Source of the DNA: Candidatus Pacebacteria bacterium CG2_30_36_39
GTDB lineage: Bacteria > Patescibacteriota > Microgenomatia > UBA1400 > PJMF01
Length of the DNA stretch: 64,000 bases
Reading direction: 5' to 3'
NCBI GenBank assembly: GCA_001873435.1
Contig: MNZB01000002.1
Location: 129,620-193,619 of the forward strand
The translations under genes were made by a program, and so were the position numbers. Below the pieces are notes generated by a model, which saw only the letters and a list, made by a program, of their open reading frames with translations, did no database searches and was not told where the DNA came from. Shown here piece by piece: positions 9,882 through 64,000 of this stretch. How positions within the stretch are numbered: position 1 is the first letter of the stretch; every line of letters starts with the position of its first letter.

Positions 9882-11432
9882 TTAATTCTTAATCAAAGAA
9901 GTAATATCCCACAGCTGCAAACAAGGAGCATTATTTCCTCGACAATATTGTTCAATAAGCAAATCTGAATTACTTTCCATCAACCTCATTTTCTCTCGAT
10001 GAGAATTAACCAGCAACCAAACCTTTTCATAACCATTGCTTTGCTCAATAAATTTATCTGGTATGGCATAGACAGGCTGACCAATGCCTTCAACTCTTAA
10101 ATTAGTGTAGTCCTGATTGTGTAAATACATTAGCACTCCATCAGGCAAAGTACCAAAATAACCCTCTGTAGCGACTATTAGAGAATGTTCTTTAGTGGCC
10201 TTAAGCATTAACTCAGTACTTTCCTTTATGCCATTACCAGCTGACCATTCAGTTAAATATTGAACCCTATCTATTGGTACAAAAGGCAAGTAATAAGGAT
10301 TTTTCCAAGAAAGAATCATAAAAAGAAATGAGGTTTGGACAATAGAAGTTAAAGCAAGAACTATAAAAGCGGCTTGAAAAATAAAATAAAATAAATTTTT
10401 AAAACTAGCTTGCGCTCTTCTAACTATGTATTCAAAAGAAAGAGCAGCAGAAACCGTTAGTGGAAAAATACTAGGCAATATATAACGTGGATAAATAGTT
10501 TTACCAAGAACTAAAATCGGCAAAACAAACCCCAAAAAACTCAAAATTAAAATAACATGAGTCTTTCGTAACTTGGCTTGAAATAGGCCAAAGAAAGGTA
10601 AGACAACTATTGGCCAAGAAAGATAACGGAATAAAGCTTGGAAAATTCTTTGCGTATTGGCCCAAAAAACTGTTAATGCACCTTTATCTAGTAATTCATT
10701 GATTGGGTAAAGAAAATCACTACCACGACTAAATAATTGACTAAAAATAGGAGTTAATTTTAATAATGCAAAAATTAATATTCCACCCAAAATTACCAAC
10801 GAACTTTGACCAAGCCTTACAATAAAACTTGATTTTTTTTGTGGTAAAAAACTAATTAAAACCAAACTTGGAAAAAATAAGATAGCAGGAATCTTTGTAA
10901 ATAAAGCTAATCCAAGAAATAATATTGCTAAAAAAATATTTATCGTAAAATATTTTTTATCCTGATTGGTTTTAAGCAACCAAAGAAAAGAAGCAGAAAG
11001 AAAAGTAGTTAACAGAGCATCCATTAAAGCCATACGGTGATGAAAATACCAAAATGGCAGTAAAACAATTGTAAAAGCACCAAAAATTTGGGCTAATTTA
11101 CCGCCCCCAAGCTCTTTAATAGTTTCGGCAGTTATCTTGATTTGTATAAAGCCAGCAATTAGAGAAACTAAACGTCCAGCAAATAAAGGATCGTGCCAGA
11201 TTTTTAAAGCACCAGCTACCAGCCAAACAAAAAGTGGTGTCTTGCCATCATTCATAGAAAAGAATAAGTATCTTTGCCAATCATCAATAATTAGTTGCGC
11301 CCAGCGAATATAGATTGCTTCATCGGCAAAAACAGGAAGTAAAGTTAGGGAAATCAAATGAGTTAGCCAATAGACAAGGCCAATGATTATGAAACAAATG
11401 GGACTTAAAATTTTCCAATTCTTTTTTTGCAC
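9882..11432 (-). CDS. GT-C-fold membrane glycosyltransferase-like protein (ArnT/PMT-like, 516 aa, polytopic)
   Basis: A first-loop acidic motif 'VFADEAIYIRWAQ' follows TM1. About 12 hydrophobic segments. Sits in an operon with polyprenyl-P-sugar synthases. Confidence 0.5.
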   Translation of the reverse strand: MQKKNWKILSPICFIIIGLVYWLTHLISLTLLPVFADEAIYIRWAQLIIDDWQRYLFFSMNDGKTPLFVWLVAGALKIWHDPLFAGRLVSLIAGFIQIKITAETIKELGGGKLAQIFGAFTIVLLPFWYFHHRMALMDALLTTFLSASFLWLLKTNQDKKYFTINIFLAILFLGLALFTKIPAILFFPSLVLISFLPQKKSSFIVRLGQSSLVILGGILIFALLKLTPIFSQLFSRGSDFLYPINELLDKGALTVFWANTQRIFQALFRYLSWPIVVLPFFGLFQAKLRKTHVILILSFLGFVLPILVLGKTIYPRYILPSIFPLTVSAALSFEYIVRRAQASFKNLFYFIFQAAFIVLALTSIVQTSFLFMILSWKNPYYLPFVPIDRVQYLTEWSAGNGIKESTELMLKATKEHSLIVATEGYFGTLPDGVLMYLHNQDYTNLRVEGIGQPVYAIPDKFIEQSNGYEKVWLLVNSHREKMRLMESNSDLLIEQYCRGNNAPCLQLWDITSLIKN

Positions 11433-11465
11433 TTAATTCATTGTACCCAGAGAAAGGTGTTTCTG

Positions 11466-12704
11466 CTAGTTTAGCTTATTTTTCTTAAACTTCTCACTAA
11501 TAATTAGAAGCCCAAAAAAAATAACTCCTCCAAGCCAAGTAATATATTTTTGTTGACTTATGACATTATTAGCAAAACCACCAGCTAATAACCAAGGAAG
11601 ATAGCGCAATAAACCACTTAAACTAAAAGCTAAGACCAATTTTTTCCAAGGCAAATAACTAATTAAAGGCAACCAGATTATTGACCAAGTTAAATACCAT
11701 GGAAGAAATTGTTGAGAGCGCAAAGTAAATAGGGGAATAAATAAAATTAGAGAAATAAATAGGAATAAGTTTTTTTCAACCACTTTTTTTAATAAATCAT
11801 TGCGCAATGGATTTTCGAAAAACCAACCAATAAACCAATACAACCACAGAGGCAACAACAGAATTGTGACAAATTTAGTGCTGATTGAAAAACCAAGAAA
11901 AAATAAAGAAATAACACTGACGGTAATAGGTATTCTCTTGGGTTTTTTAATCACTAAAACCATACTAATAATTGCTGGTATCAACATCCAAAAGTCGTTA
12001 TGCAAATTAGATAGGATTTCAATTATTACCAATGGGTTGGCAAAAACCAACCAAACATCTGCTGCAGTAATTTTTCTATTACTTACTTTATATATTAATA
12101 ATTTGAGTACTAAGAACAATAAAATATAACTTAGCCAAGCTAAAGCTTTAAAAATAAACCAAGTAGGTAAAAACTTATTAAAGCCAACTAAATAAGGCAG
12201 AATCGAGAAGATCGTCCAACCATAGCCATATGGGGCAGGAGTATGAGTGTTGTGCATAAATCTAAGCCAATTATCTTGCGGAAAATCTAAGGCAACTTGT
12301 TGATGTGGATCAGCTTGATAAACAACTGCCATTTTGGCATTGAAAATATAATTAAAAACATCATGAGACAAGGCGTTATAGCTAAAAAATAATGGTGACA
12401 ATGCAAATAATATTTTAATAAAAAATTTTGTAGGATTTATATTTATTTCAGTTTTAAGATTTTTTAATCCTAAAAAATAAACCAAAAAATAACCAACAAC
12501 TAAAAGTAAAAAACTAGAAGTTAATAAATTTGAGTTATGGAAAAAGGTTTGCCACATCCACTGCTGAAAATTCCAGTATGGTGCCCAACTTGTTAAAACT
12601 AAATTTGGATCAGTTAGAGAATAAGAAAACAAAGAATAAAAAAAACTCACTAAAAAAAGTAAACCAAAAAGCTGGTTACTATTATTTGATTTTTTATTAT
12701 TCAT
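11466..12704 (-). CDS. polytopic integral membrane protein (412 aa), function unknown; possibly another lipid-linked-sugar-dependent transferase
   Basis: More than 10 hydrophobic segments. Aromatic-rich. No soluble domain. Confidence 0.4.
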   Translation of the reverse strand: MNNKKSNNSNQLFGLLFLVSFFYSLFSYSLTDPNLVLTSWAPYWNFQQWMWQTFFHNSNLLTSSFLLLVVGYFLVYFLGLKNLKTEININPTKFFIKILFALSPLFFSYNALSHDVFNYIFNAKMAVVYQADPHQQVALDFPQDNWLRFMHNTHTPAPYGYGWTIFSILPYLVGFNKFLPTWFIFKALAWLSYILLFLVLKLLIYKVSNRKITAADVWLVFANPLVIIEILSNLHNDFWMLIPAIISMVLVIKKPKRIPITVSVISLFFLGFSISTKFVTILLLPLWLYWFIGWFFENPLRNDLLKKVVEKNLFLFISLILFIPLFTLRSQQFLPWYLTWSIIWLPLISYLPWKKLVLAFSLSGLLRYLPWLLAGGFANNVISQQKYITWLGGVIFFGLLIISEKFKKNKLN

Positions 12705-12706
12705 GC

Positions 12707-13465
12707 TTAGTGATATTTTCCGGTTAAGTATGCCAATCTTATTTTCATAATATCAATTAACATACGAATAGAATCTTTAATAGGACTAACACGATCAGTT
12801 TTATGATGTTTCCAAAGGATTGGTACTTCTTTATAACCTATCTTAAATTTTCTAGCTAAAAACAATAATTCAACATCGAAAGCGCCAGTAAAGGCATCCT
12901 GGCGTGTTTGTTCTCCACCATAAACATAGAGAGCTGGAAAAAGTTTTTTAGTTGCATCGGCAGAAAAAAGTTTAAAACCACATTGAGTATCTTTGACTCC
13001 TCTTACTGCTAGAATTTGGACTAATAAATTGAATCCTCGACCCATTAAATGACGATAAAGAGGCTCTTTGTCTCTTCTAGCGCCAGTAATCTCTCTAGAA
13101 CCAAAAATAACTTCTTGAGAATCTATATATTTTAAAAGTTTTTCTATCTCTACTAAGGGAGTAGATTGATCAAAGTCAGTGAATAAACGCCATTCTCCAT
13201 TTGCAGCCAGCATCCCAGCTTTAACAGTTGGACCTTTACCAGCATGATGATTTTTTAGAACAACAATTCGACTGTCTTTTACAGCATATGATTCGAGAAT
13301 TTCCGCTGTTCCATCAGTACTTCCATCATCAGTTAAAACCAATTCCCAAGTATAGGTTTGTTTTTTGAGATAACTTAGCATCTCTTCAACAACACCTCTT
13401 TTAAGATTGCTTTGTTCATTGAAAGAAGGGACAACTACGGATAAAAAAGGAATTTGGTTTGCCAT
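12707..13465 (-). CDS. GT2 polyprenyl-phosphate sugar synthase (dolichol-phosphate mannosyltransferase DPM1-like)
   Basis: 'LSVVVPSFNEQSNL' and 'LVLTDDGSTDGT' (DxD region). 252 aa soluble GT-A. Confidence 0.75.
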   Translation of the reverse strand: MANQIPFLSVVVPSFNEQSNLKRGVVEEMLSYLKKQTYTWELVLTDDGSTDGTAEILESYAVKDSRIVVLKNHHAGKGPTVKAGMLAANGEWRLFTDFDQSTPLVEIEKLLKYIDSQEVIFGSREITGARRDKEPLYRHLMGRGFNLLVQILAVRGVKDTQCGFKLFSADATKKLFPALYVYGGEQTRQDAFTGAFDVELLFLARKFKIGYKEVPILWKHHKTDRVSPIKDSIRMLIDIMKIRLAYLTGKYH

Positions 13466-13473
13466 AAGCAGCT

Positions 13474-15051
13474 CTATTCTAGCGGTTGTGCGCTTTCTTG
13501 TGTAGTTCTTTTCAACATAGTTATTTCTGGTCCTCCTGGTATAACAAAGAAATCAGCTGGTTTTTTATCTGGAAAAACAGCTATTTCATAAATTGGTGAA
13601 TCAGTAACATTCGTTGTTTTCTTTTCTTCATTAATAATAAACAGGGTGGTAGTACTATCTCTTTCAGCAAAAGTTGTTGGGCTAGTATGCCCAGTAGTTA
13701 AGTAATAACGATAGTTTTGGCCATCAATATCATGACTCTCTGAAAGTAAAACCAAATTATATTTTTCTCCAGGCTGGACATGCTTTAATATTTCTTCACT
13801 AGTTCTTTTCATATCATTAATAGTCCAACCCATAGTTTTAAGTGGCATCTTGGGCAGATTGTATTGCAAAAAATATCCAGCAAAAATAATTGTGCCAAGA
13901 TAAATGAAAAATTTTGGTTTAATACTGCTTGCTAACCAGCCATAAACTAAAACTGTAACCGGAAAAAGATAGGCAATATAGTGATCAAAAATAGTATGCT
14001 CATAAAAAGCGGTTCCAATAATTCCTATTAATAAATAAGTTAAAATCACCATAAATGGAGCTAAATATTTAGCTCCATGATCTTTTTTAAGCAATTGGGA
14101 CTGCCTGATTAAATAGCCACAGATTAAAACAGCAAAACCATAAAGCAAATTCTTATTTAAAGTTCTATTTTTTCCAATCATAACTTCAAATAAAATATGC
14201 ATCCCGCGGCCTTCAGTTTCTTTAAAAGTTTTAGCCAACTTTGTAGTTAGAGAAACTTTTGGTGAATAAGTAAAATTATCTTCATTGGTAATTAAATTTT
14301 GAAATGCAGATATATTTTTACTGCCGTGCTTTAGATCAAATAAAATCAAGGGTGTTAATGATATTAGAAAAATAGAAATGGCAAGAAAAGTTGGTTTTAA
14401 AAGTGGTTTAAAGCTATGTTTTTTGTTTTGTTGATGTTTTTGCCAAAAATCCTTAAAGCTTAATAACCAAAAAATTCCAGCAACTGGCAGTGTTAATAGT
14501 GTTAAATAGTGCAATTGAATAAGAACGCTAAAACAAACACTTACCCAAACCCAGTGCCATGGATTTTTTTTCCAGGCAGAGTAAGTGAAGTAAATCATTA
14601 ATAATGAAATTACTGGAGCTGGATTGGGATTCCAGCTAAATCTAGTAAACTGAGTTGCTGTAGCAGAAAAAGTGTAAAAAGCAGATGCCAGTAAGGCTCC
14701 ATTTTCACCAATCATCTTTTTACCCAAAAAATAGATTAGATAAACAGTTAAAACTCCTAGTCCAGCCATGGCATAAACTGGTCCAATTGGATTTGGATAG
14801 GTTAGCCATAAAAAAGGTAGCATAAAATAGTAATACAGTGGTCCGAGATACATATTTCCCACACTAGTAACTGGACCAATAAAAACTAAATCATGTTTGC
14901 GAAATATGTCAGCCACTATCATGGCGTCTCTACCCTGATCTCCCTGAAATTGTAGTGAACCCTCTAGATTATAGAAACGCAAGAAGATAGCGATGAGCAG
15001 CAAACTCACCAACAACACTCTTTTGAGTGGTGAGACGGGTAATAGCTTCAT
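13474..15051 (-). CDS. GT-C-like polytopic membrane protein (525 aa)
   Basis: N-terminal TM followed by 'FQGDQGRDAMIVADIF' in a loop, then 11 or more TM segments and a C-terminal soluble domain. Architecture resembles ArnT/PMT-type transferases. Confidence 0.45.
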   Translation of the reverse strand: MKLLPVSPLKRVLLVSLLLIAIFLRFYNLEGSLQFQGDQGRDAMIVADIFRKHDLVFIGPVTSVGNMYLGPLYYYFMLPFLWLTYPNPIGPVYAMAGLGVLTVYLIYFLGKKMIGENGALLASAFYTFSATATQFTRFSWNPNPAPVISLLMIYFTYSAWKKNPWHWVWVSVCFSVLIQLHYLTLLTLPVAGIFWLLSFKDFWQKHQQNKKHSFKPLLKPTFLAISIFLISLTPLILFDLKHGSKNISAFQNLITNEDNFTYSPKVSLTTKLAKTFKETEGRGMHILFEVMIGKNRTLNKNLLYGFAVLICGYLIRQSQLLKKDHGAKYLAPFMVILTYLLIGIIGTAFYEHTIFDHYIAYLFPVTVLVYGWLASSIKPKFFIYLGTIIFAGYFLQYNLPKMPLKTMGWTINDMKRTSEEILKHVQPGEKYNLVLLSESHDIDGQNYRYYLTTGHTSPTTFAERDSTTTLFIINEEKKTTNVTDSPIYEIAVFPDKKPADFFVIPGGPEITMLKRTTQESAQPLE

Positions 15052-15057: not shown

Positions 15058-16230
15058 TTATTTTTTCTTACCCTTTTTCCAAATAAAGGTATTGTAAGCA
15101 AAGAAATTCCAAAACATTCCAATTAGGATTCCGCCTACGGCATACATAGTACCGGTATCAATATCCATATTAATAATTGGCAAGGTGAAGAGAGTAAATA
15201 GTCCGACAAAGGTCTCTCCAACAAAAGCAATTATTTGTTGAATTAAAATTGAACCACCAGATGCCAAATTAAATTGAACAAACTTAGCTGGAATTTGTTT
15301 TGCTTTAAGTTTACGATCAGAAAAAGTCCATAGGTTGCTTAGAATAAAATTCATTAAGACAGCACATTCAATAGCTAAGAAAAAGGCTAGCTGGAATGGA
15401 GCAACTAAACGCCAGCCTTGTAAAGTCAAAAGTTGAGTAAGTGCGCCAATGCCACCGACTATGACAAACTTAAAAATTCTACTTTTTAATAAATCTGTGA
15501 CTCTCACTTTCATAATGTATTCAAGAGTATTTTTTATATACTCAGGTCCTATTTTACTTTTACCAATGGTTCTATCTTTGAAATGAAAAGGAATTTCTGC
15601 CATGGAAAATCCGTGGTTCATTGCTTTATGAAGAAACCCAATTTGAAAGGTGTACCCAGAGAATTTATCATCATTTAACTCTTCTCTAATTGTTGTAAAA
15701 ACTTTTTTAGTAATAGCGCGATAGCCAGTAGTCCAGTCTCTAATTTTAAAATTAGTTAAAACAGTCATGATAACCAAATTTCCCACCACACTCAAAAACT
15801 TGCGGTGGAAGCCCCAATCGGCTGGAATACTGCCACCTGGAATATACCTGGATCCAAGTGCCATGTCATAGCCTTCATCTATTTTTTTGAGAAACAAAGG
15901 AATTTTTGTTGGGTCATGAGAGAGATCTGCATCAAATTCGAAAACAACTTCAGCACTGAGTTTGTTAAAGGCAAAATCCATGCCTTTTAAATAAGCTCCG
16001 CCCAAGCCAGCTTTTTCAGGATTTACTAATAGTTCCAGGCTAGCAAATTTTTTCTTTAAGTTCTCAACTAACTCGTAGGTTTTATCTGGTGAAGTATCAT
16101 CAACTACCAATACTCCGCACTCCCAATTATTAATTTCTTTAAAGGTTTTGTAAACTTCAGTGAGAGTTTTTTCAATGTTCTCACGCTCGTTATAGGTTGG
16201 GATAATGACGAACGCTTTTTTTTGTTGCAT
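15058..16230 (-). CDS. GT2 polyprenyl-phosphate glycosyltransferase fused to a C-terminal GtrA-like membrane domain
   Basis: 'FVIIPTYNERENI' and 'VLVVDDTSPDKT'. The C-terminal 120 aa has four TM helices, typical of GtrA-family fusions. Confidence 0.75.
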   Translation of the reverse strand: MQQKKAFVIIPTYNERENIEKTLTEVYKTFKEINNWECGVLVVDDTSPDKTYELVENLKKKFASLELLVNPEKAGLGGAYLKGMDFAFNKLSAEVVFEFDADLSHDPTKIPLFLKKIDEGYDMALGSRYIPGGSIPADWGFHRKFLSVVGNLVIMTVLTNFKIRDWTTGYRAITKKVFTTIREELNDDKFSGYTFQIGFLHKAMNHGFSMAEIPFHFKDRTIGKSKIGPEYIKNTLEYIMKVRVTDLLKSRIFKFVIVGGIGALTQLLTLQGWRLVAPFQLAFFLAIECAVLMNFILSNLWTFSDRKLKAKQIPAKFVQFNLASGGSILIQQIIAFVGETFVGLFTLFTLPIINMDIDTGTMYAVGGILIGMFWNFFAYNTFIWKKGKKK

Positions 16231-16235: not shown

Positions 16236-17213
16236 TTAGTCTTTCAACTTGCTTTCTTCTTCTAGTTCAGACTGAACCATTAAATCTACTAGTTGTTCAA
16301 AATCAATTGTTGGTTGCCAACCCAATTTTTCTTTAGCTTTACTAGGATCGCCGATGAGCAAATCAACCTCAGCTGGTCTGTCGTAAACTGGGTTGTGTTT
16401 GTAAACACTTTGCCAATCAGTAATACCAGCTGATTTACATGAAAGTTCTAGAAATTCTCTTACAGAATGGGTTTCTCCAGTAGCAACTACATAATCATCT
16501 GGTTCATTTTGCTGAAGCATCAACCACATAGCTTCAACATAGTCTTTGGCATAGCCCCAGTCACGTTTTGCATCAAGATTACCCAATTCAATATATGGCT
16601 GTTTGCCGAGTTTAACTCTAGCAATGCCATTGGCAATTTTTCTAGTTACAAACTCAAGACCACGGCGAGGGGATTCATGATTGAATAAAATACCGGAAAC
16701 GGCAAACATATCATATGATTCACGATAGTTTACTGTAATCCAATGACCATAAACCTTGGCGACGCCATATGGTGATCGAGGATAAAAAGGTGTTAATTCT
16801 GTTTGTGGGGTTTCGCGAACCTTGCCAAACATTTCACTTGAAGAGGCTTGATAAAATTTAGCATTAGGAGAAGCTAGACGCATTGCCTCAAGTACTCTGG
16901 TTACGCCGATACCAGTAAATTCTCCAGTTAAAACGGGTTGTTCCCAAGAGGCTTGCACAAAAGATTGAGCAGCTAGATTATAGATTTCATCTGGTTGAAT
17001 ATCTTTTAGAGCGAAAGTTAATGAGTGTTGATCAATTAAATCACCAGAAATTAACTTAAGATTTGGATTATGGACAACTCTTTTAATTCTGGCAAAATTT
17101 TGAGTACTAGTACGACGAGTAAGACCGAAAACCTGATAGCCTTTTTCAAGTAAAGACTCAGCTAAATATGAACCATCTTGGCCGGTAATACCGGTAATAA
17201 ATGCTTTTTTCAT
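16236..17213 (-). CDS. gmd: GDP-mannose 4,6-dehydratase
   Basis: '[35 protein letters not shown]'. '[19 protein letters not shown]'. 325 aa. Strongly conserved Gmd signature. Confidence 0.9.
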
Positions 17214-17223: not shown

Positions 17224-18180
17224 CTATTGTTCTCTCCACCACTGTACTATTCTTGCTAGGGTCGTGTCGAGAGGGATTGTGGGTTCCCACCCGAGTGATT
17301 CAATTTTTGCAATGTCAGCAGTCACTCTATCTGTTTCACCAGTACGATTTTTGCTTTCATCAGCAACAATTTTAAATTCTTTATTGGCCAATTGTTGAAG
17401 TTTTTCTAATATCTCTCGAAGAGTAACATCTCTGCCACTACCGATGTTGTAAACTTCTCCAGCTTCACCTTTTTCCATTAGCAAGGCATAAGCTTTAACA
17501 ACGTCTTTTACATCAGTAAAATCGCGACTGACATCAATGTTTCCTACTCTCAATTCTTTTTTTAATCCTTTTTCAATTTCTTGAGTTATTTGTGAAACGA
17601 AATCTGGAATAACAAAGCCTTTGGGTTGATATTCACCTATATGATTAAAAGATCTAGTTCTGACGATATTAAGGTTGTGAGAGGCGTAGTAGGCACTGGC
17701 CAACATGTCTTGAGTAACTTTTGAAACAGCATAGGGATTTCTTGGACCTAGGGGACTAGTTTCAGTTAATGGACTAGGGGATGGAGCATATTCTGTGCCA
17801 CTGCCAATTGAAAGTAGCTTTGCATTGGGAGTGATGTTTAGCATAGCTTCCAAGACATTAAGTTGAATTTTAGTGTTTATGTCTAAAACTAAGCTTTTCT
17901 TTTCTAAACTAAGACCTGGAGATGAAAAACTTGCCAAATTATAGATATGTTCAGGTTTGAGTAGCTCAAACAACTCCATTACTAAATTTGGTTTGGTTAA
18001 ATTTGCTTCGTGGAAATTAGTTTGAGGTATGAGCTGATCAAGAATTACTTGAGGTTCAATTTTTAGTGTAGTGACGTGAATTAGTTCTGCTGGGGTGTTG
18101 TTGGCAATGAGTTCTTGAACCAAATGTGTACCAACAAAACCAGTACCGCCAGTAATTAAGATATTTCCATTTGTTTTCAC
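17224..18180 (-). CDS. rmd: GDP-4-dehydro-6-deoxy-D-mannose reductase (Rmd-like; GDP-D-rhamnose-forming SDR)
   Basis: '[14 protein letters not shown]', 'PRNPYAVSK', '[10 protein letters not shown]', '[18 protein letters not shown]' and '[12 protein letters not shown]' closely parallel Pseudomonas Rmd, recalled from memory. Directly downstream of gmd. Confidence 0.7.
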
Positions 18181-20225: not shown

Positions 20226-21095
20226 TTATTCAACCTCACTCAAAGCTTCACGAATAGTTTTGAGTTTGAAATCTAAAATTTTAGCTAGTTTTTCATTGCT
20301 CATGGCAGTATTTCGTTGATATGGACGTGCTGAGCTCTTAAGATAAGCCTCTAGGTCGCCTTTGCCAATTTCAGCTCCCAATGATTTTATTTCATTAATA
20401 GCTACAGCAAAATCATAATCAGACCAGCTTTCGCCGTTTGTAGCATGGAAAAGACCGGTAGTGTTAGTACGAACTATAAAATCAATTACTTTACCAAAAT
20501 CATTTACAAAGGTAGGACCAAAATAGTGATTGGTAAATTGAGGGTAAAGAGAACCTGCTTTTATGCCATTAATAATGCGGTGAACAGTGTCTACTTTCTC
20601 AAAGGCGTCGGATCTAAAAGGTTGGTCAATACGTAAAATAGTCCATGGGCACTGAGCTTTTTTTACTACTTCTTCTGCTAAAAACTTTGTTTTTCCATAC
20701 CACTCGATTGGATTTGGGACATCTTCTTCGGTATAGAGTTCTTTTTTCTCTCCATCAAAAACATAAGCAGTGGAAACGTAAATTACATGTTTATTAGTTG
20801 CTTCTGCAGCTTTAATAATGTTTTCAGTTCCTATGACATTAACCTGATAAGCAATGCCATTTGCATCATCTGTTTGTTGCCAAGCACCAGTTACATCGGT
20901 GTAGGCAGCTAGATGAACAACGTGTTTTGCTGTTGATTCATTGAACCTGGTTAAGACTTGATCATATTTTGTAATGTCAGTAGGCTTATTTTGGTCTCGA
21001 AGGTCTAGATTGTTGAACTCATAAATATTTTTAAAATCTAAGGCAAAACGTGAGCCGACCAAACCATTAAGACCAGTTGTAAGTAGTGCTTTCAT
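20226..21095 (-). CDS. rmlD: dTDP-4-dehydrorhamnose reductase-like SDR (RmlD family)
   Basis: 'VVHLAAYTDV' and 'HVIYVSTAYVFDGEK...YGKTKFLAEEVV' parallel E. coli RmlD 'HYSTDYVFPG...YGKTKLAGE'. Confidence 0.65.
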   Translation of the reverse strand: MKALLTTGLNGLVGSRFALDFKNIYEFNNLDLRDQNKPTDITKYDQVLTRFNESTAKHVVHLAAYTDVTGAWQQTDDANGIAYQVNVIGTENIIKAAEATNKHVIYVSTAYVFDGEKKELYTEEDVPNPIEWYGKTKFLAEEVVKKAQCPWTILRIDQPFRSDAFEKVDTVHRIINGIKAGSLYPQFTNHYFGPTFVNDFGKVIDFIVRTNTTGLFHATNGESWSDYDFAVAINEIKSLGAEIGKGDLEAYLKSSARPYQRNTAMSNEKLAKILDFKLKTIREALSEVE

Positions 21096-56359: not shown

Positions 56360-58084
56360 ATGCAATTATTTAAAAATACCGTTATTTCTTGGTTCTTAAA
56401 AAATAAATATTTATTTTTTGTTTTTGTTTTGGGAGTATTCTTGAGGTTTTACAATCTGGGAAATATGCCCATAGCTACTCATTTGGATGAGATTATGAAT
56501 GGTTATGTCGGAAAATTTACTATTCTTAATGGTGTTGATTTGTATGGTAATAAATGGCCAATTTTTTATTTTAATAATTTTGGTGATTACCCAAATATTA
56601 TGCCGATGTATTTATCTGGTTTATCGGCAATTATTTTTGGTAATACTGAGTTTGCAATTAGATTTCCTATTGCTCTCTTTGGTGGTTTGACAATTTTATT
56701 AATTTATTTTTTAACTAAATATTTATTTAATGATAATAAAATTGCTCTTTTTAGCAGTCTAACTATAGCAATTATGCCTTGGCATATTGTTCTTTCTAGG
56801 GCAACGGCTGAGGGGGTAACTGCGAGTTTTATATTTTTGTTGGCTATATATCTATTAATTAAGGATCAAGTTAAAAAGATTTCAATTACAACTATGATTT
56901 CGTTGTTTTTATTGCTTTTTACTTATTTGCTTTATCCTTCATTTAGAATTATTACGCCGCTGGCTGTTGTGCCGCTTTTTCTTTTAACTCAGCAAAGAGC
57001 CAAAAAAATATTATTTATTGTTTTTGCCTTATTATCACTTGGTGTAACTGTATATATCAGTCAATTGCCAGCTGGTAAGGGTCGTTTCGAGCAAACTAGT
57101 ATTATTAGCCAGAATAGTCCGATTCTTCCTTATCAAAGCGAGTTTATTAGTGGTGAGGGATTTGATAATGCTTTTAAAGCTAGATTGCTATTCAATAAGC
57201 CGGTGATGTTTGGTAGGGAATTTCTTAAGCAATATACTTCATATTTTTCTACAAGCTTTCTTTTTAGTGAGGGTGGATTGCCAAAGAGGTATTTTGTTCC
57301 AGACCAGGGAGTTTGGTACTATTCTTATTTGGGTATTTTTATTTTGTTCGTTGGTTTATTAATAATATTTCCTGATAGATTATCCAAATTTTATGAAAGT
57401 ATTTTGGTTAATAAGCAAAATAAGGCGAATGTTGTCTATTTAATTTATTTAACTTTGGTTTCTTTGGTTCCAGCTGCTATGACCTATGAAGATTCTCCCA
57501 ATGTTCATCGAGCTAGTTTGTTTCCGTTGTTTTTAAGTATTTGGAGTGGTTTATTTTTTATATTTCTAAGTAAGATTAGATATCGTAAATTTAGTTATCT
57601 TGCTTTTATTTTATTTGTTTCTATTTTTTTAGAGGCAATGTTTTTTTGGAATAAGTATCTTGTTCATGCAAATAAATATCAGGAGATTTATCGCAATGGT
57701 GCTTCTAAGAATCTAGTGGAATATTTGAATTCTCATAAAAATAGTTATGACCATATTTATGTTTCTGGTAGAAATGATATTCCTCTTTACTATCCTTTTT
57801 TCAACAATATTTATGATAGGGAGTTGAGTAATAGATTTGAGTTGGGTATGAGGTTGAAGGAGATTGATAATATTAGATTAACTGATGATGATTGTTTTGC
57901 TGATTTTTTTAGAGAAATTGAGAGTGTTAATACCTCTGATTTATATATAATGGGTTCTAATTGTATAATTGATTATGAGCAGTTGATTAAAAAGAGTTTA
58001 GAGTTGACTAAAAAAGATATTATTTATACTAAACAGGGTAATGAGGAATTAGCTACTTTTACTCTGGAGGCTATTAGTAAATAG
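56360..58084 (+). CDS. GT39/ArnT/PMT-like GT-C membrane glycosyltransferase, paralog G (574 aa, divergent)
   Basis: 'IATHLDEIMNGYVGKFTILNGVDLYGNKWPIFYFNNFGDYPNIMPMY'. Confidence 0.6.
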   Translation: MQLFKNTVISWFLKNKYLFFVFVLGVFLRFYNLGNMPIATHLDEIMNGYVGKFTILNGVDLYGNKWPIFYFNNFGDYPNIMPMYLSGLSAIIFGNTEFAIRFPIALFGGLTILLIYFLTKYLFNDNKIALFSSLTIAIMPWHIVLSRATAEGVTASFIFLLAIYLLIKDQVKKISITTMISLFLLLFTYLLYPSFRIITPLAVVPLFLLTQQRAKKILFIVFALLSLGVTVYISQLPAGKGRFEQTSIISQNSPILPYQSEFISGEGFDNAFKARLLFNKPVMFGREFLKQYTSYFSTSFLFSEGGLPKRYFVPDQGVWYYSYLGIFILFVGLLIIFPDRLSKFYESILVNKQNKANVVYLIYLTLVSLVPAAMTYEDSPNVHRASLFPLFLSIWSGLFFIFLSKIRYRKFSYLAFILFVSIFLEAMFFWNKYLVHANKYQEIYRNGASKNLVEYLNSHKNSYDHIYVSGRNDIPLYYPFFNNIYDRELSNRFELGMRLKEIDNIRLTDDDCFADFFREIESVNTSDLYIMGSNCIIDYEQLIKKSLELTKKDIIYTKQGNEELATFTLEAISK

Positions 58085-58095: not shown

Positions 58096-59019
58096 ATGAA
58101 GATTTTAGTTACTGGTGGAGCAGGTTTTATTGCTTCTCACATTACTGATGCCTTTATTGAGGCTGGGCATGAGGTTGTGGTGGTTGATAATCTTTCTACT
58201 GGTAAGGAGCAATATGTGAATGCTCAGGCTAAGTTTGTTAAAGCAGATATTACTGATAAGGAGACGATTCAAAGAATTATTATGGATGAGAAGCCTGAGG
58301 TTTTAGATCTTCATGCTGCTCATATTCAAGTTGGTTATTCAGTGGTTAATCCTCAGTTTGATGCGGAGAACAATATTATTGCTCTTCTCAATATTATGGA
58401 GGCTGCTAAGGAGGTTAAGACGGTTAGGAAAGTGATCTTTGCTGCTACTGGAGGGGCTATGTATGGTAATAAGCAGACTCCTTTTGATGAGACGATGAAG
58501 GAACAGCCTCTTTCTCCTTATGGTATTAGTAAGAGGGCTGGGGAGTTATATCTCAATTATTATTACGAGCTTTATGGTATTCCCTTTGTTTCTCTGAGGT
58601 ATTCTAATGTTTATGGTCCTAGGCAGAATGCTCATGGTGAGTCTGGAGTAGTAGCTATTTTTGCTGAGATGTTGATGCAGGGTAAGGTTCCTGTGATTAA
58701 TGGGGATGGTTCTCATACGAGGGATTATGTGTATGTGGAGGATGTGGTTAAAGCCAATTTATTAGCTTTAAACACAGAGTTTGTGGGTGAACTTAATATT
58801 GGGACTGAGACTGAGGTTAGTACTAATGAGGTGTTTGAGGTGGTGACTAGGGAGTTGGGTTTGAGTGTTGAGAAGCAGTATGGTGCTCCTAGACCTGGTG
58901 AGCAGGTGACTAGTAGTCTTAGTTATGCTAAGGCTAAGGAGATTCTTGGTTGGGTGCCTAGTGTTGGTTTTGAGGAGGGTGTGAGGAGAGTGGCAGAGTG
59001 GTATAAGGGAGAAAAGTAA
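58096..59019 (+). CDS. NAD-dependent sugar-nucleotide 4-epimerase (GalE/WbpP-like short SDR, 307 aa)
   Basis: 'KILVTGGAGFIASHITDAFIEAGHEVVVVDNLSTG'. 'YGISKRAGELY' (YxxxK). 'RYSNVYGPRQ'. 'GDGSHTRDYVYVEDV'. Confidence 0.75.
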   Translation: MKILVTGGAGFIASHITDAFIEAGHEVVVVDNLSTGKEQYVNAQAKFVKADITDKETIQRIIMDEKPEVLDLHAAHIQVGYSVVNPQFDAENNIIALLNIMEAAKEVKTVRKVIFAATGGAMYGNKQTPFDETMKEQPLSPYGISKRAGELYLNYYYELYGIPFVSLRYSNVYGPRQNAHGESGVVAIFAEMLMQGKVPVINGDGSHTRDYVYVEDVVKANLLALNTEFVGELNIGTETEVSTNEVFEVVTRELGLSVEKQYGAPRPGEQVTSSLSYAKAKEILGWVPSVGFEEGVRRVAEWYKGEK

Positions 59020-59031: not shown

Positions 59032-60681
59032 ATGTATTTAAACAGCAATCCTTGGATTTTTGGAGACGAGTACATTTACATAAGTAAAGCCAGAAATTTA
59101 AAATTTGGAATAGACGTTTTAGCAGATACAACAATAGGACATAGTTATCCTCCCCTATATTCATACCTACTATCTCTCGTTATTGGAAATGATCCAGTTT
59201 CTACTTATAGAAATATACAAATATTAAATTTTTTTTCCTCTCAATTTATTTTATTAATTTCTTTTTACTTTTTAAATAAAACTTATGATTTCACCAAACA
59301 AAAAAATGGTTTTGTTTATTTAATCTTTTCATATTTTGGAATAGCAAGTTTATCTACTATTTTAGGTTACAACTTTGTAGCAATGAGTGAAAACCTATTC
59401 ATACCATTAGTATTTTTAATATTTTCTTTAACTAATTATTTATTAAGTAAAAATAAAATTAACTATAAATTACTTTTTTCAATTGCTCTTTTAATATCTT
59501 GTTCCATTTTAACCAGAACTATCGGTATTATACTAATTCCTGTTTTCCTACTATCAATGTTGCCAAGTTTTATAAAATCTAAGAATACAAAAAAAATATT
59601 TTTAGATTCTGTATTATTTCTATTTTTTTCAATCATTCCATATTTAATTTTTAAAAAAGTAGAAAATTTATTTACCCCTAGCACCATTCAGGAGATTTCT
59701 GGTGATTATGATTCTTTGTTTAAAGCTTATGTTGGAGTAATAAAAGATTTTTTTCTTGGTAAAAATAATTTTTTTATTTCATTAAAAGTCATTGGGAATC
59801 ACATTATTTACTTATTTTTTTCAACCTTCTTTTTACCTTTTTTATTTATAATTAATGATTTTGTCGAATTTGTTAAAAGCAAAAAGATAAAAGGTGAATT
59901 AATTTTTGTTTTAACATCTTCTTTGCTGTTTTTTATACCTTCATACTTACACGATTATTTAGGATTTTTCAGAAATGAAATAAAATATTCTACATATTTT
60001 AGGTATGCTGATGCTAGTATCATTATTATGATTGCATATTCATTAATTAGACTTTTTGAAGTGACAAAAAATAAACTTAAGATATATAAAAATAGCTATT
60101 TTTTATATTTTTTTATATCAATGATTTTAACTTTATTTTTACCAGTTAGAGATTTTTATGTAACTATTAATTCCCTTGGTTGGACTTGGCTAGATATATT
60201 TAAGCAAAATGCTCTAATAATTAAAATTATATCTCTACTTTTATTATCTATTTTTTTATTTTTTATAAAATATAAAAAATACAATTTGTTCTTACTTTCA
60301 ATAATTATTTTAAATTTGTTTTCTATTTTTCCGATACTTAAAATGAATACATGGTTATCAACAAATAAAGAAAACTTGGCACTTGAACATACAATTTCAA
60401 ATATTTTAAGTAATAATAAAAAGATTCCTTTTTATATAGATAAAAACAATACAAAAGATGATAGTTTTGTGGGACCAATTTATTATGGAAAGTATTTCCT
60501 ATTATTTAATAGCAATGAAAAAATTCCAATAAAACCAATAAATATTAAAGAATTAAATGGTAAAAAACAATTTGTTTTTTTGGGAAAATCTAAAGATGAT
60601 ATTTTTAACATATATAATTTTAACGAAGTTATATCTATATCTGAAAATTTAAAAATTGGTATTATTTATGAGAATAAATGA
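59032..60681 (+). CDS. polytopic membrane protein (549 aa), extremely AT-rich; possibly another lipid-linked glycosyltransferase or polymerase
   Basis: More than 12 hydrophobic segments. N-terminal loop 'IFGDEYIYISKARNL'. No soluble catalytic domain recognised. Confidence 0.4.
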   Translation: MYLNSNPWIFGDEYIYISKARNLKFGIDVLADTTIGHSYPPLYSYLLSLVIGNDPVSTYRNIQILNFFSSQFILLISFYFLNKTYDFTKQKNGFVYLIFSYFGIASLSTILGYNFVAMSENLFIPLVFLIFSLTNYLLSKNKINYKLLFSIALLISCSILTRTIGIILIPVFLLSMLPSFIKSKNTKKIFLDSVLFLFFSIIPYLIFKKVENLFTPSTIQEISGDYDSLFKAYVGVIKDFFLGKNNFFISLKVIGNHIIYLFFSTFFLPFLFIINDFVEFVKSKKIKGELIFVLTSSLLFFIPSYLHDYLGFFRNEIKYSTYFRYADASIIIMIAYSLIRLFEVTKNKLKIYKNSYFLYFFISMILTLFLPVRDFYVTINSLGWTWLDIFKQNALIIKIISLLLLSIFLFFIKYKKYNLFLLSIIILNLFSIFPILKMNTWLSTNKENLALEHTISNILSNNKKIPFYIDKNNTKDDSFVGPIYYGKYFLLFNSNEKIPIKPINIKELNGKKQFVFLGKSKDDIFNIYNFNEVISISENLKIGIIYENK

Positions 60682-61261: not shown

Positions 61262-61262
61262 T

Positions 61263-61808
61263 ATGTTAGTAATATCAACCATTTTTTTACATTTATTATT
61301 ATTTATCTTAAAAAAAATCAAGTTTGACTTTGGAGTTGATGTTAATTTTAGACTTTTTGTATTTTTTGAGTTGTTTTTGTTGACATTTTTTATGATAAAA
61401 AGCTTTTTTTATATTAAAAAAAATAAATTAAATGTTAGTTTGAGCAATAATTTTGTTTTTAATTCATATTTATTTAAACTTTTCAACAACAAGACTACGA
61501 GGTATATTTTAATTCCTTCTACATTATTTACATTAGCGATATTTTTTAGTTTAGCATCAAACTATGGATTCCATATGTTTTTATCTTATTTGTCACCATT
61601 TTTTTTATATGTTTTTTTTATTATTTTTGAAAAAAAAATTAAAAATGATAAAAGTTTGATTTTTTTTCTATTTATTTTTTATTTAATATTTGATACTCAA
61701 GAAAACAGTTTTTTAAAAAAAGTTAGCTTAATTTTATTATCAACAATCATTGCAACGGTTTTTGTAAAAGAAATAAAAAAATTATTAGTTTCTCGCAAAA
61801 ATTTCTAA
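61263..61808 (+). CDS. small polytopic membrane protein (181 aa), hypothetical
   Basis: ORF with 4-5 hydrophobic segments. Extremely AT-rich. Confidence 0.3.
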   Translation: MLVISTIFLHLLLFILKKIKFDFGVDVNFRLFVFFELFLLTFFMIKSFFYIKKNKLNVSLSNNFVFNSYLFKLFNNKTTRYILIPSTLFTLAIFFSLASNYGFHMFLSYLSPFFLYVFFIIFEKKIKNDKSLIFFLFIFYLIFDTQENSFLKKVSLILLSTIIATVFVKEIKKLLVSRKNF

Positions 61809-62969
61809 TATATTTTGTGAATATTTTTCCCAACTTAATTCCTTAAAAACAGTATCTCTCGCATTTTTTGAAATTTTTTCATACATTTTTTTATTGTTTA
61901 GTAAATAATTTATGTTTTTTACCAAAGAGCTAACTGATTTGGCTTCAAAAATAAAACCATTTTCTTTATTTTTTATTATCTCAGAAACTCCAGCGTCAGA
62001 AGAAATAACTGCTGGTTTACCATACGACATAGCTTCAACTGGAGCCAATCCCCATGTTTGTTTTACAGCAGGAAAAACAAAAATATAAGAGATTTCGTAA
62101 AGGGCAGCCAGTTCATCTTCAGATAAAGAACCAGTAAAAATAATTCTTTCTGATAAGTTTAGTTTTTTAATTAATTTTTTTAAATTATTTAACTCACTTC
62201 CAGAACCACCAATAATTCCTATAACATTTTTATTTTTTAATTTAAGGAAAGATCTTATAAAGTCGTCTATTCTTTTTAAAGGTTCTAATTTGCTAACAGT
62301 AAGTATTACCTTTTTATTTTTTAATTTATACCGATCTATAATCTTATTCTTAATTTCTTTATCTACTTCTTTTTTTTCGAAACCAGTGTGAACAACAATA
62401 GAATCTCTATTGAATGTATCTTTAACAATTTTTTTATTTTTTCTATCCAAAACTATTATATTATCAACTGATTCTACTATTTTTCTTTCTGTATATAGAT
62501 AAATAAGTTTTATTGGATAAAAAAATAACTTATTAAGTTTCCACCAATTTCTCAAAGGAAATCTATGCCAAGGGCTAAGTTCATTAAACATCCAAAAAAT
62601 TTTAGCTTTAGTATTTATTTTTTTATATAAAAAAGCAGAAAAATAAGATGGTGGATTATGACAATTTATTATTAAGTGACCTTTTTTCATTTTTTTGTAT
62701 ATTTTGTAAAAAAAGAAAGGAAAAAAAACTGACAAGTATTTTTGTTTAAGAAAAATACTACTATGGTCAGAAACAGAAACAATATTTTTTTTAAGTTTTT
62801 TAACTAAGTTAGGATAACAATTTTTTTCATCATAAAAATATGTGTATAAAGTTACATTATGACCTTTTTTAATAAGTTCATCCAGTAAATTAAGTATTTG
62901 TCTTTCTGCCCCACCATACATATCCAATAATGGATGTACTAAAGCTATATTAAGTTTGTTTTTTTTCAT
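61785..62969 (-). CDS. GT4 (GT-B) glycosyltransferase
   Basis: 'IALVHPLLDMYGGAERQILNL' N-terminus. 'WGLAPVEAMSYGKPAVISSDAGVSEIIKN'. 'FVFPA'. Confidence 0.75.
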   Translation of the reverse strand: MKKNKLNIALVHPLLDMYGGAERQILNLLDELIKKGHNVTLYTYFYDEKNCYPNLVKKLKKNIVSVSDHSSIFLKQKYLSVFFPFFFYKIYKKMKKGHLIINCHNPPSYFSAFLYKKINTKAKIFWMFNELSPWHRFPLRNWWKLNKLFFYPIKLIYLYTERKIVESVDNIIVLDRKNKKIVKDTFNRDSIVVHTGFEKKEVDKEIKNKIIDRYKLKNKKVILTVSKLEPLKRIDDFIRSFLKLKNKNVIGIIGGSGSELNNLKKLIKKLNLSERIIFTGSLSEDELAALYEISYIFVFPAVKQTWGLAPVEAMSYGKPAVISSDAGVSEIIKNKENGFIFEAKSVSSLVKNINYLLNNKKMYEKISKNARDTVFKELSWEKYSQNILEIFARN

Positions 62970-63006
62970 AAGTTACTATTCTTTGACAAGATGCTAATAT
63001 ATTAAA

Positions 63007-64000
63007 GTGAAAGAAACAAGTCTAAAAAAAGGCACTATTTTTTTATTTATATCTCAAATTTTTTCTATATTAACAGCTTATTTATTAAACTTTTATTTAG
63101 TTAGGCTCGTTTCTCCAAAGGAATATGGAGATTATTCAATAATAGTATATATTCTTTCCCTAATAGCCCTAATACTGTCATCTACTATCCCTCAGGCTTC
63201 TTCCAAGCTTGTCTCTGAGCATGGTATTGATTTAAGAAAAATAATTTCTGAAAGTTTTAGACTACAATCAATTCTTGTAGTGTTGATAACAATAGTTTAT
63301 ACAGCCTTGATTCCTCAAATAGGCTTTATACTCAACGATTCTTCTTTAAAAGAGTATATGTATAGTTCTTTAGTAATGATACCAGTCTATGGCTATTATA
63401 TTCTATTTTCTAGAATAGAGAATGGAAAAGGAAATTATTTATCACAATCGTTAATGGATGGTTTGGTTAATTTTGCTAAATTATCTTTAATTTTTATTAT
63501 ATTTTTATTATTTGGGAAAAATACCAACAATGCAATAATTGGTTTTTCTATATCACCAATTATTTCTATGGTTCTTGGTTTTATTTTAATTAAGCCAATT
63601 TTAAAAAAGGAAAATGAATATACTAAAGATTTTTTACTATTTTCGATACCATTTTTTTTGTTTTCTGTTTTAACAAATTTTTCAATCAAAAGTGGTTTGT
63701 TTATAATAAAATATTTTAACTTTAGTGGAGATAGTGTTGGATATTTTGCTGCCTACTCTACATTGTCTCAAATATTAGGTTTTTTCCCCACAGCACTTGG
63801 TTTGGCACTATTTCCAAAAGTGTCAAAAACATATTCATATAGACATCTAGATGGGCTTAAAAAAGTACTTAATAAATCAATAATCCTTGTATTTCTAATT
63901 ACAATAACTCCATCATTATTTTTGATAATTTTTAAAGAAAAAATAGTATCTTTTCTTTTTTCTGTGCAATATTTAGAAGAAATTAGTATTTTTAATTCTC
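63007..64000 (+). CDS. Wzx-like oligosaccharide flippase, 5' portion (GTG start; continues beyond the window end)
   Basis: Frame 1 is open from GTG 63007 to the window end. Translation '...KKGTIFLFISQIFSILTAYLLNFYLVRLVSPKEYGDYSIIVYILS...' is a typical polysaccharide-biosynthesis/Wzx N-terminus, with multiple TM segments following. Confidence 0.55.
   Translation, partial: MKETSLKKGTIFLFISQIFSILTAYLLNFYLVRLVSPKEYGDYSIIVYILSLIALILSSTIPQASSKLVSEHGIDLRKIISESFRLQSILVVLITIVYTALIPQIGFILNDSSLKEYMYSSLVMIPVYGYYILFSRIENGKGNYLSQSLMDGLVNFAKLSLIFIIFLLFGKNTNNAIIGFSISPIISMVLGFILIKPILKKENEYTKDFLLFSIPFFLFSVLTNFSIKSGLFIIKYFNFSGDSVGYFAAYSTLSQILGFFPTALGLALFPKVSKTYSYRHLDGLKKVLNKSIILVFLITITPSLFLIIFKEKIVSFLFSVQYLEEISIFNS

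Follow-up and report, generated by a model that had tools for sequence, protein, structure and literature searches.

A conserved 54-kb region with sixteen GT-C glycosyltransferases in a Pacebacteria genome: a putative envelope-glycan assembly region

Why would a bacterium whose genome is expected to be small keep the genes of sixteen membrane glycosyltransferases in a single region? The question is raised by a stretch of 64,000 nucleotides from Candidatus Pacebacteria bacterium CG2_30_36_39, a tiny groundwater organism not yet cultured (contig MNZB01000002.1 of GenBank assembly GCA_001873435.1), hereafter the window, to which all coordinates refer. Bacteria of the CPR (Candidate Phyla Radiation), also called Patescibacteria, have strongly reduced genomes and are thought to be attached to hosts, and a small genome is what the group would lead one to expect. 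The window is AT-rich, with a G+C fraction (GC) mostly of 0.30-0.37. From position 9882 to its end, the 54.1 kb analysed here, glycan genes account for 82.8% of the bases, and 16 genes for large membrane proteins of the glycosyltransferase C type (GT-C) alone for 25.6 kb (47%). With the same GT-C proteins as queries, tblastn gave no GT-C match in a control set of 1.25 Mb that consisted of 77 argS loci of other species. On balance, the region is probably a composite envelope-glycan assembly region, in which a large and fixed set of GT-C enzymes builds or finishes glycans on the outer face of the membrane. An earlier note on this DNA had proposed glycosylation outside the membrane from lipid-linked monosaccharides, and by gene inventory this general reading stands; the gene classes it listed were all found, at or near the positions it gave. 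Its statement that nearly every gene serves this one theme needs correction: the cluster is interrupted by trmD and argS, and about 11 open reading frames (ORFs) are unrelated or have no assigned function.

All ORFs of at least 100 amino acids (aa) from 9882 to the window end were scanned with Pfam, and key ORFs were also compared with NCBIfam. The 16 large membrane proteins are GT-C-type glycosyltransferases, as seen from Pfam matches, paralogy, homologue annotation and predicted fold. They are listed below and are named hereafter by their first coordinate; TM stands for transmembrane helix, and the core module is the gene group at 9882-19497.

9882..11432, minus strand: GT-C of PMT_2 type, 516 aa, at the end of the core module (PF13231, 36.8 against 26.1 bits; FADE after TM1; orthologous PMT_2 protein in the same module of relatives L087 and L088)
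11466..12704, minus strand: GT-C of the MptA_B family, 412 aa, 10 TM (PF26314, precomputed match)
13474..15051, minus strand: GT-C of PMT_2 type, 525 aa, paired with 15058 (PF13231, 35.8 bits; adjacency to the DPMS-like gene kept in L087 and L088)
23543..25327, plus strand: group B GT-C (PTPS_related/YfhO-like), 594 aa (PF13231, 27.9 bits; full-length paralogue of 31242, E 4e-35, and of 52578)
26828..28171, plus strand: short GT-C of GT39/PMT_2 type, 447 aa, 12 TM (homologue annotation; TADE after TM1)
29504..31249, plus strand: group A GT-C (PMT_2), 581 aa, low GC (0.25 at 30-32 kb) (PF13231, 32.5 bits; THDE)
31242..32942, plus strand: group B GT-C (PTPS_related), 566 aa (PF10131, 36.8 against 26.4 bits)
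33911..35635, plus strand: group A GT-C, 574 aa (full-length paralogue of 29504, E 5e-52; NRDE)
39372..40967, plus strand: group A GT-C (PF13231, 42.3 bits; 4-bp overlaps)
40964..42664, plus strand: group A GT-C (full-length paralogue of 29504, E 3e-53; 4-bp overlap)
47381..49099, plus strand: group A GT-C (PF13231, 30.4 bits)
49096..50751, plus strand: group A GT-C (PF13231, 31.3 bits)
52578..54284, plus strand: group B GT-C, 568 aa (full-length paralogue of 31242, E 7e-56; sub-threshold GT-C_AftD match, 19.9 bits)
54217..55440, plus strand: PIG-V-like GT-C, 407 aa, 9 TM (PF04188, Mannosyl_trans2, 23.4 against 22.4 bits)
56360..58084, plus strand: group A GT-C, 574 aa, lineage-specific (PF13231, 36.8 bits; absent from L007 and L009)
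59032..60681, plus strand: GT-C with ArnT-like fold, 549 aa, at the start of the low-GC segment (AlphaFold2 model, Foldseek, hhalign)

The PMT_2 model (PF13231) was exceeded above its gathering threshold by eight proteins (9882, 13474, 23543, 29504, 39372, 47381, 49096 and 56360), and Pfam models of GT-C families were above threshold for 10 of the 16. The other six are connected with these through paralogy, the annotation of homologues, comparison of profiles and fold: 11466, 26828, 33911, 40964 and 59032 have no Pfam match of their own, and 52578 has a sub-threshold one. Permissive Pfam thresholds added nothing for the proteins without matches, and NCBIfam named no GT-C protein of the window at equivalog level. 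All-against-all BLASTP and profile searches resolved two groups. Group A comprises seven full-length paralogues (29504, 33911, 39372, 40964, 47381, 49096 and 56360) that are mutually 22-37% identical. A group A profile of 16 sequences gave no meaningful match when compared with the PDB by sequence, so that the GT-C call for this group rests on Pfam PMT_2 and on an hhalign link to the 59032 family. Group B consists of three paralogues (23543, 31242 and 52578) and belongs to a family with 15,301 representatives at E <= 0.001. Among 42 sampled members of that family, 21 matched PTPS_related, 11 YfhO and 4 GT-C_AftD, and the group B profile matches the AftD structure 6W98 (E 9e-4). The three proteins that had been predicted to be YfhO-like do not reach the Pfam YfhO model (PF09586), which no protein of the window matched; 31242 matches PTPS_related, a model related to YfhO. 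Group B is best described as YfhO-like, its window members not being demonstrated members of the YfhO family. Some relatives of group B (P0296, P0355, P0278) are giant tandem proteins, for example one of 3329 aa with six matched stretches and one of 1670 aa with four, and are either real fusions or gene-calling artefacts.

Other features common to the set agree with this assignment. A simple hydropathy scan, which undercounts, found 6-12 TM helices across the 16 proteins, where 7-13 are typical of GT-C, and the AlphaFold2 models of 59032 and 11466 show membrane bundles that are helical throughout. An acidic residue in the first outside loop, just after TM1, is present in all 16 (in 59032 without a preceding TM1). 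The loop motif of group A is [HRWL][DE]E, whose Glu is invariant in 16 sequences, group B has an invariant Asp in an H/D-D motif (HD, and DD in 31242), and the singletons carry ADE (9882 and 26828), GDE (59032) or GDQ (13474). Members of the 59032 family begin PWxFGDEY from residue 7, which leaves no TM1 ahead of the acidic motif, and this start is common to all 27 aligned homologues.

The four proteins that were hardest to place have individual support. A precomputed match to MptA_B_family (PF26314) exists on a protein identical to 11466 (P0157) and on every listed homologue, and was not obtained with our local Pfam copy; against the MptA equivalog TIGR03459, 11466 scores 28.5 bits where 439 are required, and it is therefore not an MptA orthologue. 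Foldseek with the 11466 model returned noise (top match a peptide transporter, E 0.55), and the model also matches ALG3, GPI mannosyltransferase I and ALG6. For 26828, 127 homologues were found, many with PF13231 and/or PF02366 and several named GT39; a role as Wzy polymerase, considered since the gene follows wzx, was rejected because these homologues are GT39/PMT_2 proteins. A few homologues of 59032 carry PF13231, and hhalign gives a probability of 84.5% for its relationship with group A. Its AlphaFold2 model (pLDDT 87.7, pTM 0.90) has ArnT 5EZM as best Foldseek match (E 2e-6, TM-score 0.53, 11% identity), followed by AglB/STT3, Emb, AftB and AftA. The PIG-V match of 54217 passes the threshold marginally, with about half of the profile covered, and precomputed matches on its orthologues are flagged weak. 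None of the 16 scores as a true GT39 protein O-mannosyltransferase (PMT): the best PF02366 scores were 19.2 (29504) and 16.0 bits (56360) against a cut-off of 22.7, and no PMT_4TMC or MIR domain was seen in the Pfam scan of the window proteins. The ArnT (GT83) equivalog NF009784 gave 18.1 bits for 56360 against 567. In sum, these results uphold the claim that these proteins are GT-C enzymes and not transporters.

Enzymes of this type would draw on lipid-linked donors, and two candidate synthases are encoded in the core module:

15058..16230, minus strand: candidate polyprenyl-phosphate hexose (mannose-type) synthase, GT2 plus GtrA/DPMS membrane domain (Pfam GT2 and PF04138, GtrA_DPMS_TM)
12707..13465, minus strand: soluble GT2 of 252 aa, a candidate polyprenyl-phosphate-sugar synthase that forms a pair with 11466 (Pfam GT2)

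The 15058 protein has a full-length match in the dolichol-phosphate mannose synthase (DPMS) of Pyrococcus furiosus, 5MLZ (residues 2-364 against 21-365, E 1.1e-40). Judged from its sequence, it is a synthase of polyprenyl-phosphate sugars to which a GtrA-like membrane domain is joined, and the predicted GtrA fusion is confirmed by the two Pfam matches. Its best NCBIfam match is PgfS, at 68 bits against a cut-off of 500, and it is thus not a PgfS orthologue. The best solved matches of 12707 are ArnC, PfDPMS and GtrB, and it aligns over its whole length with 15058; of the two synthases originally proposed, one is accordingly a full-length DPMS homologue and the other a soluble relative that stays a candidate. 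The module runs entirely on the minus strand in the order PMT_2, MptA_B, GT2, PMT_2, DPMS, gmd, rmd and ugd, with intergenic gaps of 2-33 bp, and contains two adjacent GT-A/GT-C pairs (15058 with 13474, and 12707 with 11466), both of which are kept in L087 and L088. As known from the genes alone, the set typical of multi-component transmembrane glycosylation is present: synthase pairs, a GtrA-like domain and two Wzx. None of the 13 GT-C genes outside the core module has its own polyprenyl-phosphate-sugar synthase, so that they must share donors, most simply those from the core module.

The remaining glycan genes supply nucleotide sugars or belong to the synthesis and export of a polymer:

16236..17213, minus strand: gmd, GDP-mannose 4,6-dehydratase (TIGR01472, 437.8 against 415 bits, equivalog)
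17224..18180, minus strand: rmd, GDP-6-deoxy-D-lyxo-4-hexulose reductase-like (best solved match 2PK3, Rmd, E 7.6e-47, full length; second 6X3B)
18196..19497, minus strand: ugd-like nucleotide-sugar 6-dehydrogenase (TIGR03026, 413.5 against 189.8 bits; TuaD equivalog below cut-off)
20226..21095, minus strand: rmlD-like reductase (TIGR01214, 144 bits, below the cut-off of 224)
21112..22125, minus strand: rmlB, dTDP-glucose 4,6-dehydratase (TIGR01181, 476 against 365 bits, equivalog)
22338..23468, minus strand: LCP-family glycopolymer-to-peptidoglycan transferase (LytR_cpsA_psr, 104.6 bits; TIGR00350, 94 against 62.3 bits)
25332..26825, plus strand: Wzx/MOP flippase (Polysacc_synt_3, 145 bits)
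32971..33894, plus strand: cytoplasmic GT2, paralogue of 36551 and 50724 (Pfam GT2)
35644..39375, plus strand: four cytoplasmic glycosyltransferases, GT2 35644 (GlfT2-like), GT2 36551, GT4 37409 and GT2 38509 (Pfam)
50724..52573, plus strand: cytoplasmic GT2 (50724) and GT4 (51503) (Pfam; best solved match of 50724 is GmaR)
58096..59019, plus strand: GalE-like UDP-hexose 4-epimerase (best solved match 4ZRM, GalE, E 1.6e-78)
61785..62969, minus strand: GT4 (Pfam)
62998 to beyond 64000, plus strand: Wzx flippase (Pfam)

The match of 17224 to Rmd supports, at the level of sequence, a GDP-D-rhamnose route. Among solved structures, 35644 comes closest to a polymerising galactofuranosyltransferase of GlfT2 type (E 1.4e-16). 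Most of what the earlier note had listed in this class is recovered. The two Wzx-like flippases and the LCP protein all have Pfam matches, and gmd-rmd, rmlB-rmlD, ugd and the galE-like gene are all present, gmd and rmlB at equivalog level, but the rmlD gene falls below its cut-off and is only rmlD-like. More than 10 GT2 and GT4 enzymes had been announced, and exactly 10 glycosyltransferases other than GT-C were counted, namely seven GT2 (including both synthase candidates) and three GT4.

From the observed gene identities, folds, paralogy and synteny we infer the donor sugars, the flipping, the acceptors and the order of the steps as follows. Nucleotide sugars would be supplied in the cytoplasm by Gmd with Rmd (GDP-D-rhamnose), by RmlB with the RmlD-like protein, by Ugd and by the GalE-like epimerase. 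Single sugars would be loaded onto polyprenyl phosphate by 15058 and probably also by the soluble GT2 12707, and the GtrA-like domain of 15058, the Wzx/MOP flippases or both would bring the loaded lipids to the outer face, where the 16 GT-C enzymes would each move one sugar to a specific acceptor position. In parallel, the eight cytoplasmic GT2 and GT4 enzymes, one of them GlfT2-like, would build a lipid-linked backbone that Wzx flips and LCP joins to peptidoglycan. LCP, Wzx, the cytoplasmic GT2/GT4 set and the rhamnose genes together point to a wall-linked polymer, and it is this backbone that most likely serves as the main acceptor.

Genes of the region are mostly packed tightly or share 4-bp overlaps, which suggests operons. 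The core module is followed by trmD (19567) and by 20226-28171, which contains the rmlD-like gene, rmlB and LCP and, divergently, a group B GT-C, Wzx and the GT39-like GT-C. After the gene of an LPQTG protein come 10 tightly packed or overlapping genes (29504-42664), in which GT-C are mixed with GT2 and GT4, then small ORFs without assigned function, the gene of a Thr/Pro-rich protein and argS (45596). Six genes occupy 47381-55440 (four GT-C, one GT2 and one GT4), and 55518-59019 contains a membrane protein of no assigned function, one GT-C and galE; a low-GC segment (0.20-0.25) begins at 59032. Housekeeping genes lie upstream of 9882, namely those for the CCA-adding enzyme, RecJ, DsbA and a Cas4-like nuclease, together with tRNA-Gln and the pair of response regulator and kinase. 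An Rfam scan identified only the tRNA-Gln, which is outside the glycan region.

This arrangement is conserved. The 11466 protein is 100% identical to a protein of the CG2_30_36_39 metagenome-assembled genome. The source contig turns up again in several groundwater metagenomes, and the nearest species representatives are metagenome-assembled genomes of Patescibacteria with an ArgS identity of 72-74%. Most paralogues have one-to-one orthologues, in kept order, in L007, L008, L009, L089 and L090, with 50-84% identity as compared with 22-37% between paralogues, and the expansion is thus old and fixed. In L007, L008 and L009 the order is kept from 32971/33911 to 58096, L088 keeps LCP through the upstream housekeeping genes, L089 keeps gmd through GT4 with an orthologue of the LPQTG protein, and L090 keeps the order without the 29504/31242 pair. 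The distant Patescibacterium L087 has the core module only. Both trmD and argS are kept within the conserved order across several genera. Between orthologues, the C-terminal outside domains show about the same conservation as the membrane parts and are not consistently less conserved. As the paralogues are old, one-to-one and kept in order, each is probably responsible for a linkage of its own within a single conserved, complex glycan. The comparison of synteny with related genomes, which had been proposed as a check, thus shows order and orthologues kept across related genera.

Several observations concern the neighbours of these genes. At 8518-9847, the core module is directly adjoined by a response regulator and by a histidine kinase that is short (221 aa) and has no predicted TM helix, and such a pair also stands beside it in L087 (distant, 11473-12805) and L088 (close, 12853-14167); the pair may regulate envelope glycosylation. 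Between the GT-C operon and argS, at 42728-44188, lies a run of small ORFs on both strands (103, about 81, 118 and about 160 aa), of which only the last has a recognisable counterpart, in L007 and L009 (49% identity). GC rises locally to a peak of 0.43 at 44000-46000, where the secreted Thr/Pro-rich protein 44387 is encoded and argS starts, as against about 0.33 in the remaining window. The insertion at 55518-58084 consists of a 202-aa membrane protein of no assigned function (minus strand) and the group A GT-C 56360; both 55518 and 56360 are absent in L007 and L009, where the PIG-V-like gene runs directly into galE.

Only the low-GC end, from 59 kb onward and past the window, looks variable. 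GC is down to 0.20-0.29 there, and an O-antigen-like Wzx locus extends beyond the window by at least 10 kb (L093), with Wzx, DegT, a 526-aa membrane protein, a methyltransferase-GT4 fusion, GT4, UDP-GlcNAc 2-epimerase (Epimerase_2), GT2 and a third Wzx on the source contig. Contigs of two assemblies end within the low-GC segment, which suggests strain variation or horizontal origin, and in L091 the neighbourhood of the 59032-type gene differs (Glf, NeuB, a polysialyltransferase-like gene and others). The 526-aa protein (L093, 5966-7546) has eight TM helices, YGD after TM1 and a weak resemblance to group A (score 9.6, high composition bias), and may be a 17th GT-C. At 60656-61808, two small membrane proteins are encoded in low-GC sequence, one with a C-terminal IPT/TIG domain (Pfam 36.6 bits) and the second with five predicted TM helices and no family match.

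Two proteins encoded in the region could be substrates of glycosylation:

28289..29143, minus strand: surface protein with N-terminal TM anchor, Cys-rich domain, Pro/Thr repeats, poly-Ser and C-terminal LPQTG (sequence; Pfam PT repeat; TIGR01167)
44387..45460, plus strand: secreted or lipoprotein-like protein with signal peptide, LPAC and Thr/Pro-rich linker, a possible O-glycosylation substrate (sequence; no Pfam match)

The 28289 protein matches the NCBIfam model LPXTG_anchor (TIGR01167) with 22.7 against 15.9 bits, which together with its sequence confirms the predicted Ser/Thr/Pro-rich LPQTG protein inside the cluster. The LPQTG is followed by a hydrophobic stretch that ends in LLFL without a basic tail, and no sortase gene was found in the window. 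An orthologue with LPATG occupies the same position in L089, but a membrane protein stands there in L090. This weakens the idea of 28289 as a dedicated, conserved substrate, and with it the link that had been drawn from this protein to protein glycosylation.

Several facts weigh against the proposed envelope-glycan assembly region. It is broken up by trmD and argS and may therefore hold several independent systems. Only two synthase candidates face 16 GT-C enzymes. No priming phosphoglycosyltransferase, Wzy, rmlA, rmlC or genes of GDP-mannose synthesis were found in the window, where the Wzx/Wzy pathway is represented by two Wzx, without priming transferase or Wzy. The PMT_2 model says little on the acceptor, and proteins could thus be the targets. 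Finally, the low-GC end differs between relatives, so that the region is partly not fixed.

Two alternatives build on these points. Protein O-glycosylation could be the main task, with PMT_2-type GT-C enzymes moving sugars from polyprenyl-phosphate donors to Ser/Thr-rich disordered regions of exported proteins such as 28289 and 44387, as GtrB/PgtC2 and Pgf do in streptococci and Pmt in actinobacteria. The Pro/Thr repeats, poly-Ser and LPQTG of the former (found at the same position in L089), the Thr/Pro-rich linker behind the signal peptide of the latter and the choice of PgfS as best, although well sub-threshold, NCBIfam match of 15058 are compatible with this, and in streptococci Ser/Thr-rich regions are indeed glycosylated by GT-C enzymes (PMC12041528, PMC5856776). 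However, PF02366 is below threshold for every protein, no MIR or PMT_4TMC was seen, L090 lacks the LPXTG protein at its place, known systems of this kind require one or two GT-C rather than 16, and the LCP, Wzx and cytoplasmic GT2/GT4 set indicates a polymer. As the main function we hold it to be unlikely, but by analogy it would be a serious rival for part of the GT-C set. Somewhat less likely still, the region might not be one system but a neighbourhood, due to chance or genome compaction, of several independent glycan loci: the core module for mannosylation, a locus for a wall polymer with rhamnose and LCP genes, and an O-antigen-like Wzx locus. The interruption by trmD and argS, the isolated core module (9882-19497) of the distant L087 and, from 59 kb onward, a GC that is far lower (0.20-0.25) and a gene content that differs in relatives fit such a patchwork. 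Against it, the whole order, trmD and argS included, is kept over several genera, and the 13 GT-C enzymes outside the core module need donors from elsewhere, most simply from that module.

The number of paralogues had also been taken to suggest combinatorial or variable display of surface glycans, which might serve against phage or host. The absence of 56360 and 55518 from L007 and L009, that of the 29504/31242 pair from L090, and the low-GC end, which varies in relatives and at which assemblies break, are in favour of variability. But for most paralogues the orthologues are one-to-one and their order is fixed, the paralogue identity of just 22-37% indicates old duplications, and the C-terminal domains are not consistently more divergent, which speaks against this suggestion. 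Variable display is thus improbable for the region as a whole and, as far as the sequences tell, would fit only the low-GC end and a few lineage-specific insertions. That the large membrane proteins are transporters or permeases is scarcely credible: the five proteins without a Pfam match of their own, the sub-threshold 52578 and the peptide transporter at the top of the Foldseek list of 11466 would allow it, but GT-C Pfam families are above threshold for 10 proteins, the rest are joined to these by paralogy, annotation, profiles and folds, and no transporter family was matched significantly.

How does a fixed GT-C set of this size compare with known glycan assembly? In mycobacteria and corynebacteria, lipomannan and lipoarabinomannan (LM/LAM) and arabinogalactan are assembled from polyprenyl-phosphate donors by many GT-C enzymes that form one linkage each (Ppm1, MptA/MptB, PimE, Emb/Aft, GlfT2 and Lcp1 take part), and the mycobacterial genes are scattered over a genome of about 4.4 Mb. 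The window shares with them an MptA_B member, an AftD-like group, a GlfT2-like GT2, an LCP ligase and rhamnose genes. It differs in that no decaprenyl-phosphate-arabinose pathway is present in the window, the AftD similarity is below the Pfam threshold, and the genes form one block in a CPR bacterium without mycolate envelope. The ALG3/9/12/6/8/10 enzymes in the lumen of the ER (endoplasmic reticulum) and the glycosylphosphatidylinositol (GPI) mannosyltransferases likewise form a GT-C series that uses two lipid-linked donors for one defined glycan; this likeness is of fold and logic only (8-13% identity) and does not speak for a common ancestry of the pathways. By analogy, the region would be closest in logic to mycobacterial LM/LAM and arabinogalactan assembly and to the ER-lumen ALG steps. 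A rival likeness is with protein O-glycosylation by Pmt in actinobacteria. With the P. furiosus DPMS 5MLZ, 15058 agrees from end to end, in the catalytic and the four-helix GtrA-like domain, and differs by its bacterial host.

In multi-component transmembrane glycosylation, a GT2 enzyme loads a sugar on polyprenyl phosphate, a flippase moves it and a GT-C enzyme transfers it outside; known systems use GT-C of PMT_2 or YfhO type, some with flippases of Wzx/MATE type (PMC8035078, PMC11127046). By gene content, both adjacent pairs of the core module fit this scheme exactly. The Gram-positive examples (CsbB/GtcA/YfhO, GtlA/GtlB, GacI-L and CsdAB/CD/EF; PMC8035078) resemble the window in its adjacent GT-A/GT-C pairs with LCP and rhamnose genes nearby. 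In contrast, they comprise one to three scattered GT-A/GT-C pairs, whereas the window has two synthase candidates and 16 GT-C in 54 kb and, instead of a separate GtrA, a GtrA-like domain fused to the synthase as in archaeal DPMS. The streptococcal GtrB/PgtC2 and Pgf systems (PMC12041528, PMC5856776) similarly combine a GT2 synthase, GT-C and an epimerase with Ser/Thr/Pro-rich surface proteins in or beside the locus, but have one or two GT-C, and 15058 is not an orthologue of PgfS. Each component family is already known, and what is new is the scale: 16 GT-C against two synthase candidates, in one block that is conserved across genera.

The envelope of CPR bacteria is almost uncharacterised. 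Proteins of the region appear in public databases as hypothetical or GT39, an overview of CPR/Patescibacteria does not mention glycosylation (PMC11665869), and a search of the literature on CPR taxa and these enzyme families found no paper on such a cluster by title or abstract. That organisms with reduced genomes spend more than 54 kb and 16 GT-C on surface glycans implies a central role of the glycan in their biology. The locus is also a compact natural set of diverged GT-C paralogues for studies of acceptor and linkage choice, and its core module is a concrete target for determining the donor specificity of 15058 and 12707 in heterologous hosts. More specifically, and only tentatively, the region may encode an assembly line outside the membrane that is unique among known small genomes, in which about 16 GT-C enzymes and two donors would make a lipoglycan or wall polymer rich in mannose and D-rhamnose, perhaps by way of an undescribed polyprenyl-phosphate 6-deoxyhexose (a 6-deoxyhexose donor is possible because 15058 lies beside gmd and rmd). 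If this is true, the core module, widely conserved, would mark a signature envelope glycoconjugate of the CPR, possibly one used for attachment to host cells.

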